From: an uncultured Alphaproteobacteria bacterium
GTDB taxonomy: Bacteria; Pseudomonadota; Alphaproteobacteria; Rs-D84
Direction: 5' to 3'
Assembly (NCBI GenBank): GCA_934232895.1
Contig: CAKQGH010000004.1
Location: 21,979 to 85,978, forward strand
Length of the DNA stretch: 64,000 bases
Position 1 is the stretch's first letter. The number at the start of each line of letters is the position of its first letter. The translations under genes and the position numbers were made by a program. Below the pieces are notes generated by a model, which worked only from the letters and a program-made list of their open reading frames with translations, had not been told where the DNA came from and ran no database searches. Below, piece by piece: positions 9,470 through 63,607 of the stretch.

Positions 9470-9775
9470 AATACCACTACCCCGCCCGCTTATGCGGGCA
9501 CCCCTTCGCTGGGCGAAGGGGACGACGGGGGCTCAGAATACATAATAAAAAAAATTGTCATTCCTACGTAGGCAGGAATAGGATCTTGAAAATTACTCTC
9601 ATTCGTTGTTGCACAATGTTCAATAAAAATGGGTTGATACCAATATTACCGTATTCCGCAATATTCTGTGTTTGGCTCGTTGTCACTCGCACTGTATAGT
9701 CCCTATTCCTGCCTACGCAGGAATGACAACATGGCAAGTGCGCCGAATGGCGCACTTCATTGCTCTCTGCTCTCT
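9470..9775. repeat. Repeat mosaic 1 (nested palindromic units; contains MITE copy 1)
   Basis: Units CCACTACC-hairpin-CACCCCTTCGC-N-GCGAAGGGGA and GCGCC-N-GGCGC + TTCATTGCTCTCTGCTCTCT recur at 30.3-30.9 kb, 38.76 kb, 46.7-47.2 kb and 56.4-57.1 kb. Confidence 0.8.
9555..9729. mobile_element. MITE-like element, copy 1 (~175 bp, ~27-bp terminal inverted repeats)
   Basis: TIRs TTGTCATTCCTACGTAGGCAGGAATAGG and CCTATTCCTGCCTACGCAGGAATGACAA. The interior is ~80% identical by eye to 56653-56830. No coding capacity. Confidence 0.7.
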
Positions 9776-28815: not shown

Positions 28816-30132
28816 TTACATCGCCTGCATTTTGCTGACGGAGAAATCCAATTTCTTCGTCTTGCCCGAAACAACATTCATCGGCAATGCAATGTCTTTG
28901 AGAGCCTCCTCAATCGATGTCGTGCCACTGGCAACGCTGGTTCCCGTTGTGGTTGTGGTACCGGTGATTTTGGTCGTGGTCGATATGTCATCCGCCATCA
29001 CCTGGTCTGCAACCACCGCATCAGAAACCTGCATCTGTTGCTCAAGGGCTTTTTTTAATTCTTCATTGACCTCTGGTCTTGTGTACTTTTCTGCAAGGTT
29101 TGATGTTTGTTTCGTCTCGGTTTTGGTTTCTGTCGTATCTGGGACCATTTTGTTCAATGCCGTTAACATATTTTTTGCATTGGCCGCATCGTATGTGTTA
29201 TTGCATGCTTTCAAGACACTCTTTTGTATATTGGACAATGTATCGGGCGCCGTGCGATATATTTCCAGGCATTTTTTGAATTGAATATCCGACGAGCACC
29301 CATAACACTCATACATCATATCGCTTGAATATGTTTTTGTCGCTGATGTAATCTTTTGTGTGTCTTGCTTTTCAACACACCATTTTTTGTTTTTATCCCA
29401 AACCATATTATTCTTGCCACAATCCATACAGATTCCCGTTTTATCTGGACCTTGGGTTTCTGTTTCTGGGCAATATTCACACTTTTGTAAAAACGTATTG
29501 AAAATATAATCCGTCCCAGTGCATGTGACGCATTTGCCGTTGGCGTCCAATCCCTTGGTCAGCCCCGTGCAAGAATCATCGGATTTTGTTTCTTCCTTTG
29601 GTTTCTCGGGCTCTGTGGCTTGCTTTTTCGGTGTATCGTCTTTCTTTGCGGTGGTTTTTGGTGTTTCCTGTTTCACGGCGGTGCATTTGCCACCACTAAC
29701 AACCTGGCCACTGGGGCATGATGTTGGTACTGTGCAATCGCCCTCAACTGTACCGCATATTGTCACGGTCTCTGTATATTCACATGTGCCACCGCCAACG
29801 GATTTTGTCTTTTTCGTACTGCTTTTTTCCCAATTCTTGCCCTCTACAAACGTTCCTTGTTTGCCACCTTCGCCCTTTACACCATCACAGCACCAAAAGT
29901 GGCGGTTATTATGTTCAAAATCATCATGATGTGCCAATTCGTGCACGGTGTTTCTCTTTGCGGCTTTGTTGCCTTTACACGAGTGTATCTGATAACCGCA
30001 CAACCAATATTCGTCGTTGCCCTTGTCTTCAACCCAGCATTCACTCTGATACCCCGTATAGAAATCGGCCCAGACCGGGCATATAACCAATGCACAAATC
30101 ATAACCAGAAAAATTTTACGCAGCATATTCAT
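28816..30132 (-). CDS. Secreted CXXC-rich protein (VSP/furin-repeat-like Cys spacing), downstream of inverton 1
   Basis: Signal peptide MNMLRKIFLVMICALVICPVWA. Many Cys, including CVTC, CEYC, CMDC, CYGC and CPSGQVVSGGKC. Lys/Thr/Glu-rich linker. GGGGGA RBS. Confidence 0.7.
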   Translation of the reverse strand: MNMLRKIFLVMICALVICPVWADFYTGYQSECWVEDKGNDEYWLCGYQIHSCKGNKAAKRNTVHELAHHDDFEHNNRHFWCCDGVKGEGGKQGTFVEGKNWEKSSTKKTKSVGGGTCEYTETVTICGTVEGDCTVPTSCPSGQVVSGGKCTAVKQETPKTTAKKDDTPKKQATEPEKPKEETKSDDSCTGLTKGLDANGKCVTCTGTDYIFNTFLQKCEYCPETETQGPDKTGICMDCGKNNMVWDKNKKWCVEKQDTQKITSATKTYSSDMMYECYGCSSDIQFKKCLEIYRTAPDTLSNIQKSVLKACNNTYDAANAKNMLTALNKMVPDTTETKTETKQTSNLAEKYTRPEVNEELKKALEQQMQVSDAVVADQVMADDISTTTKITGTTTTTGTSVASGTTSIEEALKDIALPMNVVSGKTKKLDFSVSKMQAM

Positions 30133-30160: not shown

Positions 30161-30276
30161 TTGCCGAAAAAAACGGTGGTTTTTTGCGCAATAAATACCA
30201 CTTGACCTGATGGCGGATTTCTGGGTATAATTTCCGTATAAAAGTGCCGAAATTAAACCACCGTTTTTTTCGGCAC
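30161..30276. promoter_or_regulatory. Putative invertible promoter element 1 (promoter currently facing away from gene 28816..30132: OFF)
   Basis: Perfect 20-bp IR GCCGAAAAAAACGGTGGTTT (30163-30182) / AAACCACCGTTTTTTTCGGC (30255-30274). Interior promoter on the + strand: TTGACC (30202-30207), 18 nt, TATAAT (30226-30231). The interior is homologous to element 2 only when reverse-complemented. Confidence 0.6.
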
Positions 30277-30294: not shown

Positions 30295-30327
30295 CCCCGC
30301 CCACCGCGGCATTGCGGGGATTTTTTG
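30295..30327 (+). terminator. Hairpin plus T-run on the outer flank of inverton 1
   Basis: CCCCGC-CCACCGCGGCATT-GCGGGG-ATTTTTTG. Conserved at 56362-56392. Confidence 0.5.
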
Positions 30328-30329
30328 TG

Positions 30330-30860
30330 TTTTTTATTTGTCCCTGCGGGGCAATGGACCCCGACCTTCGTCGGGGTGACGGTCTTTTTTATTCTTAAAA
30401 CTTTATCACTCTATCACTGATGCGCTGCCGACACCCCGCCCTGCGTGCACCCCGACTTCCCAGAGGTGAACTTGACTTGCAACGAGAACGTAGCAAGTTC
30501 TCCTCCTGTGGAGGAGTACCGCGTAGCGGGGAGGTGGTCTTTTTATTTGTCCCTGCGGGGCAATAGATACCGGCCTACGCCGGTATGACGGAAGTTTTGT
30601 GGTTGATTACCAAATTTTACGAGTGTTGTTCGGCTGTAGGTGATTTATTATAGTCGTCACCCCGACACCCGGGTCCCACAAAATTGAAAATTTTGTGGGT
30701 GGTACCAGGCCGGGGGCCATTGCCCCGCAGGGACTTATTTACCACTACCCCGGCACTTCGTGCCACCCCTTCGCTTGGCGAAGGGGAATTTAGACCACAA
30801 CGGGAATGAAACAAGTGCGCCATCGGCGCGCTATCTATTCTCTATTATCTATTCTCTATG
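30330..30860. repeat. Repeat mosaic 2 (largest cluster of nested palindromic units)
   Basis: TTATTTGTCCCTGCGGGGCAATGGACCCCGACCTTCGTCGGGGTGAC, CCCACAAAATTGAAAATTTTGTGGG, CACCCCTTCGCTTGGCGAAGGGG and CTATCTATTCTCTATTATCTATTCTCTATGCTCT units all recur elsewhere in the window. Confidence 0.8.
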
Positions 30861-30892
30861 CTCTGAAAAACCGCCCCGGGATGGGGCGGTTT

Positions 30893-40638: not shown

Positions 40639-40863
40639 GATTTTATCCTTTTTTCTGTTGTTATCCTCGCCGTGGGCACCAGACCAGATTTTATCAATCC
40701 AGACAGAAATTTTGTCCAACGGTTGTGTTCTTCACGCATCGGCGTGTAGCCCGATAATAGAACAATTCCCCAATAAAATCAAGGAAAATTTAATGATTTG
40801 AATATAAACCCACCCAGCAAAAGAAAAGTTGACAAATATTTTTTATGTGCTAATAATCTAGGT

Positions 40864-42678
40864 ATGAAGTCAAGGAACGGATTCTTTGCAATTATTATTT
40901 GTTTGGCCATATTTTGCCGTACGGCGATGGCCGGCGATTGCAGCGATACAAAATACCGTGGAAACAATCCGATTGAATGCCAATTTTTCATTGATGGCGC
41001 AACATCATTTTTTGGCACGGCGGGACTGGTCGGCGGCGCATTGGCGCTGGTTGGCATATCTATGTCGGGCGGTGGCGACAATGGTACCGCGGGCCCGTCA
41101 CAACCTACATTGACCGTGCCCGCCTATGTCGGCGATGACATCAGTGCCGCAGAACTGGCCGGTGTTATGCAAAACGCATCGTACGCCCGCAATATGGACC
41201 AATATAATAATATCCGCCTGGCGTGGTCACTGGCGCGCGGATACACCGGGCGCGGCACAACAATCGCGGTACTAGACGCCGGGGCCGACACATGGCACGG
41301 GAAAACCGTGGCATCATTTGCGTCGGGCGCAATTGCCCCAGACGTCAATGTTGTGCAATATAAAATCGTTGATGAAAATATGAAATTTTTATCATACCGC
41401 GAAATAGGCAACGCAATTGCCAGCGCAACGGAGGCAAATGTATATAATTCCAGTTGGGCCGTGTCAATGTCCGCAACCAGCTTAACATCGCGCGCGCAAC
41501 TGGAACGCGTGACCGACAAACATTTTGTTGATGAAATATCCGCCGCCGCGCGCACGCGCGACGCCATATTTGTGTGGGCGGCCGGGAACGATGGGCTGTC
41601 CCAATCCAGTGCCCTGTCCGCCATGCCCCGCGTTATTCCCGAATTAAATGGCCATTTTGTAAATGTTGTTGCGTTTGACGATGCAACGGGGGCGCTGGCC
41701 GATTACAGCAACGCATGCGGCATCACGCGTGATTGGTGCATAACCGCGCCGGGGTCACTGCACACCGATTACACGACGGCCCATGGCACCAGTTTTGCCG
41801 CCCCGGTTGTATCGGCGGCAATCGCCGTTTTGCGCCAGGCATTTCCATATATGACCGCATCACAAATAACATCACTGTTGTTCGAAACCGCGCGCGATCT
41901 GGGGGCACCCGGGGTTGACGATGTATATGGTCACGGTATGTTGGATTTGGAACGCGCAACCCGCCCCGTTGGCGCCGCATTGGTACCAATTGGCGGCACA
42001 ATGCAACCGTTGGCCGTGGCACGCGTATCGGGGCAAATTGCACATAATATAAAATCCGCCAATCCGCAATTTGCATTCTTTGATGAATACGGCCGCGCAT
42101 TTTCAGCGGACATATCCGAAAATATCACCATTCAAAACCAGTCCCAGGCGTGGCGGCATCTGCACGGAAATGACGACATTGTGGCCACGGCCGCGGGCAA
42201 TTTTGAATTTGGGTTCCGCGACATGGATTTTTTACCGGCCGACGGCCTGTTCGGCATTGGCGATAAAAATTTCATCAGTTTTGTATCCACCGCCCGCCAA
42301 TGGAAATTGGACAACATAACATTATTTCAAACGGCATCGGTTGGTATGGGCCGCCCACATACGAACGACAATTCGATGATTACCGATATTTCCGGAATAA
42401 CAACCGCATCGGCGGCAATTGGCGCACGCGGCCGCGATTGGCAATTTGCACTGCGCATACCAGACACAATTATTTCCGGCAATATGACCATGCACACCCC
42501 GGTTGGTCGCATGGCAGACGGCGCCATTGTGTACAATGATTATACCATAGATTTATCGGCCACCCGTCCGTCGGTTGAATTCACCGCCAAATATAAATTT
42601 TTAACCGCCGGATTTGTTGATAACCCATACGGCACCGATGAATTATTCGTTGTCGGCCGTTGGAACATACGATTCTAG
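40864..42678 (+). CDS. S8 (subtilisin-like) serine peptidase, secreted, with a beta-rich C-terminal domain ending in Phe
   Basis: Signal peptide MKSRNGFFAIIICLAIFCRTAMA. Catalytic D (IAVLDAGAD), H (WHGKTVASF), S (HGTSFAAPVVSAA). C-terminus ...LFVVGRWNIRF suggests an autotransporter or OMP-like anchor. Confidence 0.8.
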   Translation: MKSRNGFFAIIICLAIFCRTAMAGDCSDTKYRGNNPIECQFFIDGATSFFGTAGLVGGALALVGISMSGGGDNGTAGPSQPTLTVPAYVGDDISAAELAGVMQNASYARNMDQYNNIRLAWSLARGYTGRGTTIAVLDAGADTWHGKTVASFASGAIAPDVNVVQYKIVDENMKFLSYREIGNAIASATEANVYNSSWAVSMSATSLTSRAQLERVTDKHFVDEISAAARTRDAIFVWAAGNDGLSQSSALSAMPRVIPELNGHFVNVVAFDDATGALADYSNACGITRDWCITAPGSLHTDYTTAHGTSFAAPVVSAAIAVLRQAFPYMTASQITSLLFETARDLGAPGVDDVYGHGMLDLERATRPVGAALVPIGGTMQPLAVARVSGQIAHNIKSANPQFAFFDEYGRAFSADISENITIQNQSQAWRHLHGNDDIVATAAGNFEFGFRDMDFLPADGLFGIGDKNFISFVSTARQWKLDNITLFQTASVGMGRPHTNDNSMITDISGITTASAAIGARGRDWQFALRIPDTIISGNMTMHTPVGRMADGAIVYNDYTIDLSATRPSVEFTAKYKFLTAGFVDNPYGTDELFVVGRWNIRF

Positions 42679-43284
42679 GTATTCGGCATGCAACCGGTGC
42701 CGTATTTTCAAAAACCGATTTAATGTATCGCGATGCACGCCCAGGCGCCGTGCAATTTTTGATTTGGCGCGCCCGTCACACAATTTTTGCAATATATATT
42801 CCTCGCGGCTTATCAGTTTTGACATACTTTTACTGCCCGTGGGGCGCCCAATGCGCCCACCCTGGGACCGCACACGGGCCAACGCCTCTTTGGTGCGCTG
42901 GGATATTAAATTTCGTTCGATTTCCGCAGACAACCCAAATGCAAAAGCCAAAACCTTGCTGGTAATATCCGAGCCCAATCGATAATTATCTTTGATTGTC
43001 CAAATTTTTGCGCCAACATCCATACAGTGATGCAAAATACTCATTACCTGCAACAAATTTCGGCCCAAACGCGACAATTCCGATGCTATTATCATATCGT
43101 CTTTGCGCAATTGTTGCAGCAATCGCCCCAGTTTACGTTTTGATAATTCCTTGGTTGATGAAATTGTTTCTTCTATCCAGCAATCTATGATTAAATCCTG
43201 TTTTTTACAAAATCGCTCTATTTCAAAATGTTGATTTTCTGTTGTCTGGTGATCGGTGGAAACGCGAACATACCCGTATATCAC
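42643..43284 (-). CDS. Serine site-specific recombinase (resolvase/invertase family, Hin/Gin-like size)
   Basis: MIYGYVRVSTDHQTTENQ holds the catalytic Ser. SRLGRN and ERNLISQRTKEALA are present. C-terminal HTH (GRAKSKIARRLGVHRDTLNRFLK). AAGGAG RBS. The last 36 nt overlap the 3' end of the convergent S8 gene. Confidence 0.85.
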   Translation of the reverse strand: MIYGYVRVSTDHQTTENQHFEIERFCKKQDLIIDCWIEETISSTKELSKRKLGRLLQQLRKDDMIIASELSRLGRNLLQVMSILHHCMDVGAKIWTIKDNYRLGSDITSKVLAFAFGLSAEIERNLISQRTKEALARVRSQGGRIGRPTGSKSMSKLISREEYILQKLCDGRAKSKIARRLGVHRDTLNRFLKIRHRLHAEYLESYVPTADNE

Positions 43285-55200: not shown

Positions 55201-56211
55201 CTATTTCCACGCCGCCGGAATATCCGCATAGTCCGACAACCCGGTTGCACCGCTATACATACCACCAACTTGTGCTGTTGTTGCATACGGGAATACATTA
55301 TAAAGTGGTGTCCCATCTGGGTTTCGCGCCGATGGTCCGGTCAGTCCACTGCATCCAGCAAATGTGTAGGCAAACATACCGTAAGCGGAGGGACCAGATA
55401 TGCCCGCAAATAGCCCCGCGGGGATTTCACCGGTCAAACCACTGCAATCATAAAATGTGTAACTATACATATTATCCGCTGGGACGCCTTCATCAATGCC
55501 AGCAAATAAATCTGCGGGGATTTGACCCGTCAGATTTCCGCACCCATAAAATGTATGAACGAAAATCGGCATACTTGTGCCAACATTCGGAAATATCCGT
55601 CCCAGGCTACCGGAAATGCCTGCCAAGTTCTGATTCTTATCAAATGCTATTACAGGACTATCAAAATTGCTACCATACCCCGTTGCGCGGCCACCAATAC
55701 GGATGTCGTATGCGCCGGCGGTGGCGTATGTGTGGCTGATGGTCTGGTCACCTGTCGCGGGTTTTATTACTTTCTGCATCGCCGTGCCATCACCCCAGTT
55801 TATATAGAAAGAACCTGCCGCGCTGATACTAAAACTGAACGTTGTGGTGTCCGATGTTGTGGTTGCCGTAAAGTGGTATTTCGGTTTTATCAATGTGCGT
55901 ACGGCCTTGATACTGGTGTTCACATTTGCCGCAAAACCCGTCGCATATTCACTGTGCTGGTAATCGGTTTTGGTGCCAACCTTGCTGTTTGCGGCATCTA
56001 TCACCGCAAACAAGTATCGCATATTTGCCGGTGCCGACGGACGTCCGGACACAATTGGAATGTTTATTCCCCATTCGTGTTCAATCAGATTATGGACATA
56101 CCGCAGGTTTACCATTGGCGACATACCGGGCGCGTCTGCACCGTGTGCCGCACCAAACACCAGTGTAAATGTGCACATCACCGACAGTAATATTCTGCGT
56201 AATTTGGTCAT
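55201..56211 (-). CDS. Secreted BspA-type (DUF285-like) leucine-rich-repeat surface protein, downstream of inverton 2
   Basis: Signal peptide MTKLRRILLSVMCTFTLVFGAAHG. Repeats FYGCGNLTGQIPADLFAGI / FYDCSGLTGEIPAGLFAGI / FAGCSGLTG. The ORF-track extension to 56505 runs through the promoter switch and is rejected. Confidence 0.7.
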   Translation of the reverse strand: MTKLRRILLSVMCTFTLVFGAAHGADAPGMSPMVNLRYVHNLIEHEWGINIPIVSGRPSAPANMRYLFAVIDAANSKVGTKTDYQHSEYATGFAANVNTSIKAVRTLIKPKYHFTATTTSDTTTFSFSISAAGSFYINWGDGTAMQKVIKPATGDQTISHTYATAGAYDIRIGGRATGYGSNFDSPVIAFDKNQNLAGISGSLGRIFPNVGTSMPIFVHTFYGCGNLTGQIPADLFAGIDEGVPADNMYSYTFYDCSGLTGEIPAGLFAGISGPSAYGMFAYTFAGCSGLTGPSARNPDGTPLYNVFPYATTAQVGGMYSGATGLSDYADIPAAWK

Positions 56212-56230
56212 TCCCCATTTCCCCCACATT

Positions 56231-56341
56231 GCGCAAAAAACGGTGGTTTTTTGCGGCATATTTTTATTGTGTAATAATAGCCGTTTTCTGCGGTTTCTGT
56301 CAACCGGATAACGCATAATAAAAACCACCGTTTTTTTCGGC
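56231..56341. promoter_or_regulatory. Putative invertible promoter element 2 (promoter currently facing gene 55201..56211: ON)
   Basis: 17-bp IR AAAAAACGGTGGTTTTT (56235-56251) / AAAAACCACCGTTTTTT (56320-56336). Interior promoter on the minus strand: TTGACA (comp. 56298-56303), 18 nt, TATTAT (comp. 56274-56279). The outer flank is near-identical to that of element 1. Confidence 0.6.
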
Positions 56342-56361
56342 ACTTCTTTTTTGGCGCCGCG

Positions 56362-56392
56362 CCCCACCCACCGCGGCATCGCGGGGATTTTT
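56362..56392 (+). terminator. Hairpin plus T-run on the outer flank of inverton 2
   Basis: CCCCAC-CCACCGCGGCATC-GCGGGG-ATTTTTG. Paralog of 30295-30327. Confidence 0.45.
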
Positions 56393-56399
56393 GTGGAGT

Positions 56400-57105
56400 T
56401 TTTTTTATTTGTCCCTGCGGGGCAATGGACCCCGACCTTCGTCGGGGTGACGACGATAAAATCATAAATCACCCGCCCCCGAACAATATTCGTAAAATTT
56501 GGCAATCAACCATAAAACTCTCGTCATACCGGCGTAGGCCGGTATCCATTGCCCCGCGGGGACATATTTACCACTACCGCGTATGCGGACACCCCTTCGC
56601 CAGCGAAGGGGAATTCACCCCGCGACAGAGATACAGAACACAGCATAAAAAGAATTGTCATTCCTGCGTAGGCAGGAATAGGGACTTGGAAATTACTCTC
56701 GCTTGGTGTTGTACAATATTTGGTAAAAAAGCGAATATCAATATTACCGCATTCCGCGATATTCTGTATTTGGCTCGTTGCCACTCGCACTGTATGGACC
56801 ATATTCCCGCCTGCGCGGGAATGACAATTGAGTGCTCGCGTTGCTCGCTGCATTTTTATGACCTGGATCCCGGGGGCAAGCCCCGGGATGACAAAGGCGG
56901 TATACTGATTTTTTTTATGAACGTAGTTTAGGTCTTGGTTGCGAACCTTTTCATAGGTGTCATCCCGGTGCTTGACACCGGGATCTAGGTATATAGTGTT
57001 GTCCGCCAACGGCGGACACATCCTTTGAACTCTGAACTCTGAACTTTTTAGCAGCGCGCCATTGGCGCGCTATCTATTCTCTATTATCTATTCTCTATGC
57101 TCTAA
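56400..57105. repeat. Repeat mosaic 5 (contains MITE copy 2 and an inverted copy of 46681-46866)
   Basis: Shares TTATTTGTCCCTGCGGGGCAATGGACCCCGACCTTCGTCGGGGTGAC, CACCCCTTCGCCAGCGAAGGGG and CTATCTATTCTCTATTATCTATTCTCTATGCTCT units with the other mosaics. Confidence 0.8.
56653..56830. mobile_element. MITE-like element, copy 2
   Basis: TIRs AATTGTCATTCCTGCGTAGGCAGGAATAGGG and ATATTCCCGCCTGCGCGGGAATGACAATTG. Interior is collinear with 9555-9729. Confidence 0.7.
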
Positions 57106-60993: not shown

Positions 60994-62076
60994 TTAATTA
61001 AACAATGTGGCATTCTGGGTCCCCAGAACATTGCCCAACGATGATGAAAAATCGGTACTGTTTGATGTGTTAAATATTTCTGTCGCATCACGACCGCGCA
61101 AATTTGACATTGATGAAAAATCTATTTTATCAATCACGCCGGACATACCACTCAGATCCAATTTGGAAAAGTCTAATTTATCAACATTGGTCATACCGTT
61201 TGATTTAAGCCCCTTTTTCAATTTATCTATGACAGATTTATTTGCACGGGAAACCGACCGTTGGTTCTTGTTTTCCTTTATCATTTCACCCAATTTTCCA
61301 TTGATAACGGTATTGCCAATCGCGCCACCAACCGCGCCCACACCGGTCAACACACCGCCCGCCGTCACACGATTTTTCGACGCCTTTTTGTCTGCATCTA
61401 TGCGGGCCTGGTCGGTTTCGCTGTTTTGCATTTTGGCGCGGTATAAACTGGCATACGCACCATCCGTTGTACCGACACCCGCATTATCATACAGCCCGGT
61501 ATTTGCCACATCTGTAATTTCTTGGCTTTCAATTCCCGCGGGCATTTCCAGCGCCACCTTGCGTTCACGCAAATCCGATGCCAGCGCAAAATATTCACTG
61601 CGCAACGCCATCAAATTTTCGTCGTTTCCACCCGGCAATTCTATTTCAGTCTGGCCCGCGGGCACATTTTTACTATCGCCGTATGTGCATCGCATTGTCG
61701 CAATATATGCCGTCATATCCGTATCGGCGGCGGCATCCGCATTTTGTTCCGCCAAACCGCGCGCCAATTCCATGCCGCCTATGCCCGTTGCCGCCATGGT
61801 CAACCCACCCAGCACCTTGTTCGCCGTTGATTGCTCGCGCGCCTTGGCCTCTTGATATGCTTGTTTTAATTCCTCTAACCTGGAATTCAGATACAACGAA
61901 TTTGCCTGTTGGTACATATCCATATATTTGCTGGTTATATCTGGTTGTGTTTCATCCGGGTGCATATTATTGACAATTTCATACAATACCAAGTATTCAG
62001 AGTTTTCCGCAGCAAACGAACCACATGGAAAAAACATCACAATCAAACTTAAAAGAAACATACAACCTTTTATCAT
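60994..62076 (-). CDS. Secreted protein of unknown function (360 aa)
   Basis: Signal peptide MIKGCMFLLSLIVMFFPCGSFA. Gly-rich central segment (AGGVLTGVGAVGGAIG). ATGA overlap with the upstream gene. Confidence 0.6.
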   Translation of the reverse strand: MIKGCMFLLSLIVMFFPCGSFAAENSEYLVLYEIVNNMHPDETQPDITSKYMDMYQQANSLYLNSRLEELKQAYQEAKAREQSTANKVLGGLTMAATGIGGMELARGLAEQNADAAADTDMTAYIATMRCTYGDSKNVPAGQTEIELPGGNDENLMALRSEYFALASDLRERKVALEMPAGIESQEITDVANTGLYDNAGVGTTDGAYASLYRAKMQNSETDQARIDADKKASKNRVTAGGVLTGVGAVGGAIGNTVINGKLGEMIKENKNQRSVSRANKSVIDKLKKGLKSNGMTNVDKLDFSKLDLSGMSGVIDKIDFSSMSNLRGRDATEIFNTSNSTDFSSSLGNVLGTQNATLFN

Positions 62077-62948
62077 TCTGACCGTCTTGTAATCCTATTA
62101 GTATAATTTTCCACGAAATTCAGCGATATGGATGGTGGAAACAAATTGGATTTATATGTTTCTGAATTAGTATCACACTTGATGAGAGTAGTAGTCCTAT
62201 TATTGATCCAACAATCTTTACACGTAATTTCACAATCTTTTTTCAACATATCTTTTGTCACATAATACCTAAATTTAGCGATTTTATCGTATTCCTGATC
62301 AATTGCAGTATAAGCCAACATATAGCTCTGATTTTCGTTCTGATCTTGTGGGCTTAATGAAAATTGATAAAACGAAGATCTGTTTTCTTCTGGCACATCT
62401 TTGGAAACGGTCAACGTTCTGTGTCCGACATTTTTATTTTCTGAATATTTGACTGAATACCTAATGTACCCGTCCGGCTCATAACACACCGTGTCTCCAA
62501 AAAGCGGCTCTTTATAACAATCTGTTAAATCCTTGGTTGATAATTCATACTGAAGTATCACAAGATTTTCGTTTTTTGAAGAATCTCTTTTTTCTATCTC
62601 TCTTCCAAGCCTTTGCGAATAAGCCTGTAAATCGTTCATATATTTTTGATAAAAATCTTCAAAGGTCTGTCGCGCCAACCAAGACTTATACTTCCCTGCC
62701 TTTACAATATCAGATGCATCTTTCAAGCTTTCTACCAACTCTGGATTCATTTGTTGCATATCTGATTCTAACTTTTCCAGATCCCGCTCTTTCCAATTAC
62801 TACCAATTACCAAGTATTCTGCATTGGTAACAGATTCATCCCTCTTTATACTGGATAAATTTGATTTCAAATATTCTTCATCAGATATCTGCGCAAATGC
62901 CAGCACAGGCATCAGGAAAAACAACAAACAAACCAACACTCTCTTCAT
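62073..62948 (-). CDS. Secreted protein of unknown function (291 aa), AT-rich gene
   Basis: Signal peptide MKRVLVCLLFFLMPVLAFA. Lys/Glu/Asn-rich. Cys cluster CEITCKDCW...C near the C-terminus. Confidence 0.6.
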   Translation of the reverse strand: MKRVLVCLLFFLMPVLAFAQISDEEYLKSNLSSIKRDESVTNAEYLVIGSNWKERDLEKLESDMQQMNPELVESLKDASDIVKAGKYKSWLARQTFEDFYQKYMNDLQAYSQRLGREIEKRDSSKNENLVILQYELSTKDLTDCYKEPLFGDTVCYEPDGYIRYSVKYSENKNVGHRTLTVSKDVPEENRSSFYQFSLSPQDQNENQSYMLAYTAIDQEYDKIAKFRYYVTKDMLKKDCEITCKDCWINNRTTTLIKCDTNSETYKSNLFPPSISLNFVENYTNRITRRSE

Positions 62949-63244
62949 ACGAAATATTGTTTCAAAAACGACCGTTTGTGTAATAACCAGTGGTCAGTAT
63001 TTTTGCAGCAACGGAAAAATGTCTGAAATCCGTTATAATCGAGACATTTTTTGTTGTAGAATAATATTGTTTGAATATCAAAAAACAGTTGATTTAAACG
63101 GTCATTTAAAATGACAGAAATTTTCAACCAGACAATTTACAGTCTGCCGTCAACGGATAAAAGTTTCTATTCCTGTTCACATAAATGGTCGTGCATATTA
63201 CGAAACGGTGTGTTATAATCAACAACGGAACAAAAGGAAAAAAT

Positions 63245-63607
63245 ATGAAAAAAATATCTGTATTGGTTATTGCCGGTGCGTTGACATCCCCAGCGCTTGC
63301 CGGGTTTATTGCTGATGCACCTGTTGCATCGTCCCAGAGTGCAGATGCGATTGTCACTGTGGCACAGGTTAAAAAAATGCGCGATGACGCACCGATCGTT
63401 ATCCAGGGCAATATTGTTCAACGCATGGGGGATGAAAAATATTTGTTCAGCGACGGAACAGATTCTGTGATTGTTGAAATTGATGACGACGATTGGGGCG
63501 GCATTGATGTCCGCAAAACAGACACCGTAAAATTATATGGAGAGGTTGATTCTGGCCTGTTCAAAACCGAAATTGATGTTGACCGAATAGAAAAAATTGA
63601 AAAATAA
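63245..63607 (+). CDS. YgiW/YdeI family (BOF) periplasmic OB-fold stress protein
   Basis: Signal peptide MKKISVLVIAGALTSPALA. VAQVKKMRDDAPIVIQGNIVQRMGDEKYLFSDGTDSVIVEIDDDDW...VKLYGEVD is the typical YgiW pattern. Extended -10 TGTTATAAT upstream. Terminator at 63608-63640. Confidence 0.8.
   Translation: MKKISVLVIAGALTSPALAGFIADAPVASSQSADAIVTVAQVKKMRDDAPIVIQGNIVQRMGDEKYLFSDGTDSVIVEIDDDDWGGIDVRKTDTVKLYGEVDSGLFKTEIDVDRIEKIEK

Follow-up and report, generated by a model that had tools for sequence, protein, structure and literature searches.

Mpi1, a candidate master invertase for dispersed promoter cassettes in a small alphaproteobacterial genome

Here we describe mpi1, which encodes a member of the Mpi master-invertase family of small serine recombinases, and the family of compact promoter cassettes that it is likely to control in the genome of an uncultured alphaproteobacterium, Candidatus Enterousia. 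The gene lies on the minus strand at positions 42643-43284 of a 64,000-nucleotide stretch of one contig (the window, to which all positions without a contig name refer), and is defined by its open reading frame (ORF) and by profile matches. Mpi1 is probably the trans-acting master invertase of this genome, flipping about ten dispersed promoter cassettes, two of which are in the window. An earlier note, made from the letters of the window, had proposed a trans-acting, Mpi-like invertase for dispersed promoters. The family model, an inversion between two related loci (L014 and L016) and the co-occurrence of enzyme and cassettes all argue for that proposal. In the following, G000 is the source genome and C4 its contig holding the window, other G numbers are relatives, and L numbers are loci.

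The source genome comprises 0.92 Mb in 24 contigs and is 78% complete. Its relatives are Candidatus Enterousia sp. from the gut of human (Hadza), sheep, goat and deer. The genus, found in the gut of people and livestock, is placed in Rs-D84, an uncultured alphaproteobacterial order with genomes mostly smaller than 1 Mb; the biology of Enterousia is little known (PMC12306168). Recombinases and phase variation are not mentioned in the paper on Enterousia and Rs-D84 (PMC12306168), and none of the literature searched ties Enterousia to invertible promoters.

The mpi1 ORF is intact. By reading of the sequence it starts with GTG, with AAGGAG 7 nt upstream. The Pfam Resolvase domain covers residues 2-143 of the 213 amino acids (E=7e-32), the N-terminus reads YGYVRVSTDHQ, and the nucleophile Ser9 in the RVST motif is intact. 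Residues 133-207, at the C-terminal side, give a weak match to a NarL response-regulator model, which we read as a putative helix-turn-helix (HTH). This is the architecture given in the earlier note, a resolvase catalytic N-terminus followed by an HTH. Against NF009949, the curated equivalog model for 'master DNA invertase Mpi family serine-type recombinase' with a cut-off of 272 bits, Mpi1 scores 299.9 bits (297 bits in the genome search), above the cut-off in both cases. Among the control genomes only Bacteroides thetaiotaomicron exceeded it. At E<=1e-25 an Mpi-family protein is found in 3 of 81 sampled Bacteroidales genomes, the best match in each being 55-61% identical to Mpi1.

The closest solved structure in PDB is the Gin invertase (E=4e-13), and the gamma-delta and Tn3 resolvases are weaker (~5e-7). 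The motif SRLGR is present in Mpi1 and in every Mpi-family sequence examined, where Gin has DRLGR. No match to a Fis-type HTH (PF02954/HTH_8) was found in the source genome, which is 78% complete, and no enhancer search was made. Because no Fis-type HTH was found, a Fis-enhancer mechanism in the style of Hin and Gin is unlikely. Three genes of the HU/IHF family are present. The description of the enzyme as 'Hin/Gin-type' is therefore better replaced by membership of the Mpi family, Gin being only the nearest solved structure. In the tree the mpi1 orthologues form a single clade (support 100/98) apart from at least five other Rs-D84 Mpi clades, and the Bacteroidales Mpi proteins fall in an unresolved polytomy with the clades of Rs-D84. 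Public homologues 71-83% identical to Mpi1 are records of 'MAG: Alphaproteobacteria bacterium' (MAG, metagenome-assembled genome) and already bear the Mpi family name at NCBI. The newness that the earlier note foresaw for the system is accordingly limited.

Two promoter switches flanked by inverted repeats and bearing dyad sites had been predicted in the window, and both are real. Each is an invertible promoter cassette of what we call class 1, each holds a sigma-70-like promoter with 11/12 matches, and in both the centres of the two sites are 84 bp apart. Switch A (30161-30276) lies 12.4 kb away from mpi1. Its left dyad site occupies 30161-30192 with a central GT at 30176-30177, its right site 30245-30276 with a central AC at 30260-30261, and the sites include a 21-nt perfect inverted repeat (30162-30182 / 30255-30275). 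The promoter, TTGACC-18-TATAAT (30202-30231, plus strand), is directed away from the target gene, so that the assembly holds the switch in the OFF orientation. On the distal flank the scanner located a terminator-like hairpin followed by a T-run (30304-30327, plus strand). The target gene (28816-30132, minus strand) encodes a cysteine-rich protein of 438 amino acids with a hydrophobic, signal-peptide-like N-terminus, as judged by eye, and without a Pfam family match. It has two paralogues (C2:23428 and C20:7862) with the same switch.

Switch B (56228-56343), 12.9 kb away from mpi1, is in the ON orientation. The central dinucleotides are GT at 56243-56244 and AC at 56327-56328, and a 20-nt inverted repeat spans 56232-56251 / 56320-56339. 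Its promoter, TTGACA-18-TATTAT (56274-56303, minus strand), is directed to the target gene. The distal flank again carries a terminator-like hairpin and T-run (56371-56394, plus strand), homologous to that of switch A. The target (55201-56211, minus strand) is a repeat protein of 336 amino acids with a hydrophobic, signal-peptide-like N-terminus. It matches PKD domains below threshold only, and by eye its repeats resemble leucine-rich repeats of the BspA type.

The two switches belong to a larger set, which the earlier count of two did not anticipate. A search of the whole genome with the repeat core identified eight complete class-1 cassettes, at C2:23428, C2:73293, C4:52149 (switch A), C4:78216 (switch B), C14:66, C15:1830, C19:9540 and C20:7862, and three more copies truncated by contig ends. 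Contigs C15 and C14 overlap by a 77-nt k-mer. One of the contig-end copies is for this reason the same locus as C14:66, and the total is about 10 loci, spread over 8 contigs of the source genome. The reversed-pattern control had 0 matches in this genome. As assembled, three cassettes face their gene and seven face away.

All loci share the same site, a dyad in each arm with the sequence GCCGAAAAAAACG-GT-GGTTTTTTnCGGC, near-perfect on both arms. Variation is slight in the outer half-site and greater in the inner one, and the centre is the asymmetric dinucleotide GT/AC. Crossover sites of serine recombinases are usually built in this way, as a dyad around an asymmetric pair of bases. In 57 elements of the genus the spacing between site centres is 83-86 bp, with a mode of 84, or eight helical turns. 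Among the sites associated with the Mpi1 clade the central dinucleotide varies by locus and species (GT, GA, TC, GC, TA, TT), while the outer half-site is kept. Such variable centres fit a serine recombinase, because the centres of two partner sites must match each other. A module of hairpin and T-run stands on the gene-distal side at about 7 of the 10 switch loci, with the conserved flank GCGCCGCGCCCC..CCGCGGCATYGCGGGGATTTTT.

The genes linked to the cassettes include three paralogous cysteine-rich proteins with signal-peptide-like N-termini, a 705-amino-acid cysteine-rich protein, the 336-amino-acid repeat protein of switch B and a Ser/Thr-rich protein. A 1180-amino-acid autotransporter (PF03797, E=6e-37) and a glycosyltransferase of the GT92 type complete the list.

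Several other repeats accompany the switches. On the distal side of both (30340-30734 and 56407-56990) are clusters of palindromic repeats, GTCCCTGCGGGGCAATGGACCCCGACC, TTGTCATTCCTGCGTAGGCAGGAAT and ATCCCGGGGGCAAGCCCCGGGAT, with a further copy at 9555-9729. These look like repetitive extragenic palindromic (REP) elements or miniature inverted-repeat transposable elements. A repeated motif, ctatctattctctattatctattctctatgctct, stands right before a terminator hairpin at 30825-30865, at 57060-57100 and at the 3' ends of C4 and C24. The contig ends C15 3'/C14 5', C14 3'/C21 5' and C22 3'/C16 5' share 77-nt k-mers inside or beside switches and repeat-protein genes. The fragmentation of the assembly is mainly due to the switches and the repeat-protein gene family.

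The 19-nt site was also scanned against metagenomes, where it matched 19 loci. Of these, 18 are unrelated to the lineage, and the one related contig starts inside a switch in its OFF form. The Prevotellaceae MAG Hm464_bin62 was considered as a further bearer of switches and rejected, as it lacks both an Mpi homologue and promoters within its repeat units. At no fewer than 11 loci (L012, L024, L026 and others) it carries palindromes in tandem, based on AACGGTGGTT / AACGACCGTT and separated by GC-rich spacers. These arrays are unrelated REP-like repeats that share the 10-mer by chance. Pattern matches in other phyla were likewise rejected, since they look like chance.

The strongest indication of inversion comes from a pair of near-identical loci in two relatives, L014 (G024) and L016 (G145). 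Their flanks are colinear, with ~97% identity, whereas one inner segment is the exact inverse of the other. Turning the stretch between the site centres round in silico raises the identity from 288/334 to 325/334. Because loci this similar hold an exactly inverted inner segment, an element of class-1 type flips in nature. For the source genome itself, the cassette at C19:9540 faces its gene, and the one at the orthologous position in G061, the sister genome, points the other way. This pair has flanks that are 91-93% identical, and the inner part aligns at 72% identity reversed versus 61% forward. Oppositely oriented, near-identical inner segments also stand between homologous flanks at paralogous loci of three other genomes. 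The 77-nt k-mer shared by C15 and C14 stops precisely at ...AAACGGTGGTTT, which is the final base common to the ON and OFF forms. This end would weakly fit a mixed ON/OFF population, and a paralogous flank would also account for it.

The presence of cassettes was compared with that of mpi1 in 120 genomes of the genus, of which 42 have an Mpi1 orthologue (>=72% identity) and 78 do not. The relaxed cassette pattern matches 26/42 of the former and 6/78 of the latter (Fisher p=3e-10, a value that ignores shared ancestry). Restricting the pattern to the class-1 core gives 14/42 and 2/78, again with shared ancestry ignored. The six exceptions that lack the orthologue consist of two likely chance matches in coding sequence, two AA-centred cores of another class and two single class-1 cassettes. 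The reversed control pattern matches about 1 in 7 genomes of the genus, and lone matches that are not class 1 therefore weigh little. The Mpi1 orthologue is the sole Mpi-family match in G030, which has 7 cassettes, in G157/G145 (6) and in G221 (5). Compared with G145:C8 (L151), the genome G024 (C15; L129 and L150) has cleanly lost ~650 bp from the stretch that separates the S8 gene from the conserved block following it, a deletion that removes exactly the mpi1 orthologue. G024 represents a natural knock-out, since mpi1 is deleted while one class-1 cassette remains.

Other recombinases were sought in the same genome. The only tyrosine recombinases found there are XerC-like and XerD-like, and for this reason a tyrosine-recombinase mechanism was rejected. 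A large serine recombinase on C3:1460-3057 (L002:374-1971) is broken into a pair of overlapping ORFs, 228 and 319 amino acids long, and is probably the frameshifted integrase of a mobile-element remnant. A second Mpi-family gene, Mpi2, is located at C2:59884-60540 (L004:1483-2145). It is 51% identical to Mpi1 and scores 263 bits with NF009949, below the cut-off. The idea of a stand-alone recombinase needs correction, since these other recombinase genes share the genome of mpi1.

Several observations weigh against Mpi1 as the invertase of the class-1 cassettes. G024 and G153 each hold a single class-1 cassette in the absence of the orthologue, and G153 has no Mpi-family match at all. In 16 of the 42 orthologue-bearing genomes there is no pattern match, and the co-occurrence statistics leave shared ancestry out of account. 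Switch A is OFF in an independent ENA assembly as well. To our knowledge, the 84-bp loop is shorter than any documented invertible segment of a serine invertase. Mpi2, with its 263 bits and 51% identity, may be the catalyst here, and another recombinase may be unassembled because the genome is only 78% complete.

The last two points lead to the alternative that the class-1 switches are flipped by Mpi2 or by an unassembled recombinase, and that Mpi1 serves some other target. We consider this unlikely. Mpi2 is an Mpi-family protein only slightly below the cut-off, and the core AAACG-NN-SGTTT is common to both site classes. A candidate for the other target is a third, class-2-like element in the window (62960-63115), in which AAACGACCGTTT on the left and AAACGGTCATTT on the right are inverted and ~130 bp apart, with a central AC/GT dinucleotide as in class 1. 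It encloses a TATAAT-containing segment between the genes 62073-62948 (minus strand) and 63185-63607 (plus strand). This region is 81% identical to the region immediately upstream of Mpi2 on C2. However, Mpi2 directly adjoins its own switch element, whose core AAACG-AA-CGTTT differs from that of class 1. Mpi2 also lacks a canonical start codon. There is no ATG, GTG or TTG between the in-frame stop and the catalytic GYIRVSS, and AGGAGG is followed at the proper distance by ATA, which may serve as a rare start codon or mark a start that has been inactivated. Genomes with five to seven class-1 switches hold only the Mpi1 orthologue, and genomes with other Mpi clades only have no class-1 cassettes, two single-copy exceptions aside. 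We thus take Mpi1 rather than Mpi2 to be the likely catalyst, with its activity presumably kept in this strain.

It is more doubtful still that the cassettes of this strain have ceased to invert and persist as fossil or static promoter modules that duplication has spread, with Mpi1 kept for another function or for none. No orientation polymorphism was seen for this strain among the assemblies compared, in which a contig with the gene chosen for switch B ends short of the switch. The inner cassettes diverge faster than the flanks and are apparently swapped between loci, which gene conversion without inversion could explain. Set against this, mpi1 is intact, retains 72-82% identity across 42 genomes and occupies a fixed locus, and the sites are near-perfect in both arms at all loci. 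The exact natural inversion between L014 and L016 in close relatives tells against static modules as well, and the overlap of C15 and C14, which ends where ON and OFF forms would diverge, is weak evidence in the same direction.

The neighborhood of mpi1 bears on its origin. The gene is convergent with an S8 peptidase gene (40798-42678, plus strand), and the two overlap at the 3' end of mpi1 by exactly the 36 nt reported before (42643-42678). The other neighbors, identified by Pfam, are a DUF3078 protein, an ORF without a family match and an outer-membrane protein of the Pom type. Family matching found no transposase and no phage gene among them. The window repeat search found no inverted repeats bracketing or adjoining mpi1 and no res-like repeats nearby. 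Both results agree with the earlier note, which had also taken the overlap as a hint of a secondary insertion. In 9/9 other species the mpi1 orthologue has the same place next to [S8]-rpsB-tsf, and the S8 gene is present in only 5 of those 9. It follows from this synteny that mpi1 is an old, fixed core gene and S8 the variable one, and insertion of mpi1 beside S8 was rejected. That mpi1 is the remnant of a transposon or plasmid resolvase inserted there is very improbable: the resolvase N-terminal domain and the overlap would suit such an origin, but the absence of transposase and res-like repeats, the conserved position beside a variable S8, the score above the Mpi equivalog cut-off and the weaker match to resolvases (E about 5e-7) than to Gin invertase (4e-13) in PDB all speak against it.

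Two further observations concern the orthologues. In another species (G148/G181:C9:15265-15891) the mpi1 orthologue has an in-frame TAG and may be a pseudogene or reflect a sequencing error. In the sheep-rectum MAG RGIG6210 (L088:2965-4378) only ~700 bp separate the mpi1 orthologue from a class-1 cassette, which precedes a gene for a 932-amino-acid protein. The distance between enzyme and target is therefore not fixed.

From the anatomy of the sites and the general chemistry of serine recombinases we infer the following mechanism, which the family of the enzyme and the natural inversion also support. A dimer of Mpi1 would bind each 28-30-bp dyad site, and the two sites of one cassette would synapse. 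The four strands would be cut at the central GT/AC dinucleotides, 84 bp apart, and rejoined by subunit rotation, so that the promoter core of ~56 bp would be reversed. In one orientation the TTGACa-N17/18-TATAAT promoter would read through the proximal site into a gene whose product is secreted or lies at the surface. In the opposite orientation it would read outward into the conserved hairpin and T-run terminator. The faced gene would thus be driven by the promoter in the ON state and silenced by way of the terminator in the OFF state. With so short a loop, bending by HU/IHF or by A-tracts in the sites would probably be needed. The predicted outcome is combinatorial surface variation.

In Bacteroides fragilis, Mpi inverts 13 regions, 7 of which are capsule promoters (PMC4747536; PMC10403206). 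This enzyme (Ssr2/FinA) belongs to the same curated family as Mpi1, which is 55-61% identical to the Bacteroidales members. Both systems have one small serine recombinase encoded apart from many dispersed promoter cassettes, as predicted here for Mpi1, and both target surface structures of a gut symbiont. The differences are several. Enterousia is an alphaproteobacterium with a genome of ~0.9 Mb, and its promoters are of the sigma-70 type; those of Bacteroides are of the -7/-33 type. The invertible segments of B. fragilis Mpi measure ~170-230 bp between crossover points, much more than the 84 bp of the Enterousia cassettes. Where B. fragilis has capsule operons, Enterousia mostly has individual genes whose products are secreted or lie at the surface, together with those for the autotransporter and the glycosyltransferase. 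A conserved OFF-side terminator is part of the Enterousia module, and no fewer than six Mpi clades occur in the order Rs-D84, whose site cores seem to differ between clades. The core AAACG-NN-SGTTT is presumably akin to the Bacteroides Mpi repeat.

The invertases Hin, Gin, Cin and Pin, which depend on Fis and an enhancer, resemble Mpi1 as small serine recombinases with a C-terminal HTH, and their dyad sites are likewise ~26-30 bp long with an asymmetric 2-bp centre. However, they lie in or beside a single invertible segment, whereas the sites nearest to mpi1 are those of switches A and B. They have one target where Mpi1 is predicted to have many, and their segment is about ten times longer than the inverted segment of Enterousia. 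The Tn3 and gamma-delta resolvases come with a linked transposase and a three-subsite res, neither of which is seen around mpi1. The mpl switches of Mycoplasma penetrans and the RecV switches of Clostridioides difficile are similar in logic, with many small promoter switches, a recombinase encoded elsewhere, one switch per surface-protein gene and a small genome. They depend on tyrosine recombinases, of which only XerC-like and XerD-like ones were found in the Enterousia genome. The Enterousia system is most likely the known Mpi strategy in a new lineage, in another phylum and in a minimal genome.

A bolder reading is possible, although we hold it to be doubtful. Mpi1 may work on an 84-bp loop without Fis, which would make the cassette, with its two 28-bp sites and 56-bp promoter, the most compact serine-invertase switch known. 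It may also recombine sites of different loci, which would carry promoter cassettes from gene to gene and rearrange the chromosome. A 0.9-Mb genome with this enzyme as a fixed core gene would then use it to generate diversity of surface and genome in general. In G061 the inner segment of one locus (L093:5304-5397) shares 86% identity with the cassettes of switch A and its paralogues, but only 73% with its positional orthologue at C19:9540, which suggests that cassettes have been exchanged between loci. These identities, together with assemblies that break at switches, fit an inter-locus exchange.

The reduced Enterousia genome keeps a master invertase at a fixed place and about one switch per 90 kb. 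Since the invertase and switches on surface-type genes are kept in so reduced a genome, variable surface presentation appears central to the life of Enterousia, where it is probably directed against phages or the immunity of the host. Should the enzyme be active in E. coli, the cassette, made up of a sigma-70 promoter, two 28-bp sites and a terminator on the OFF side, could provide a compact genetic switch. It would be a test case for serine-recombinase synapsis of sites only 84 bp apart. The Mpi strategy is not confined to Bacteroidales.

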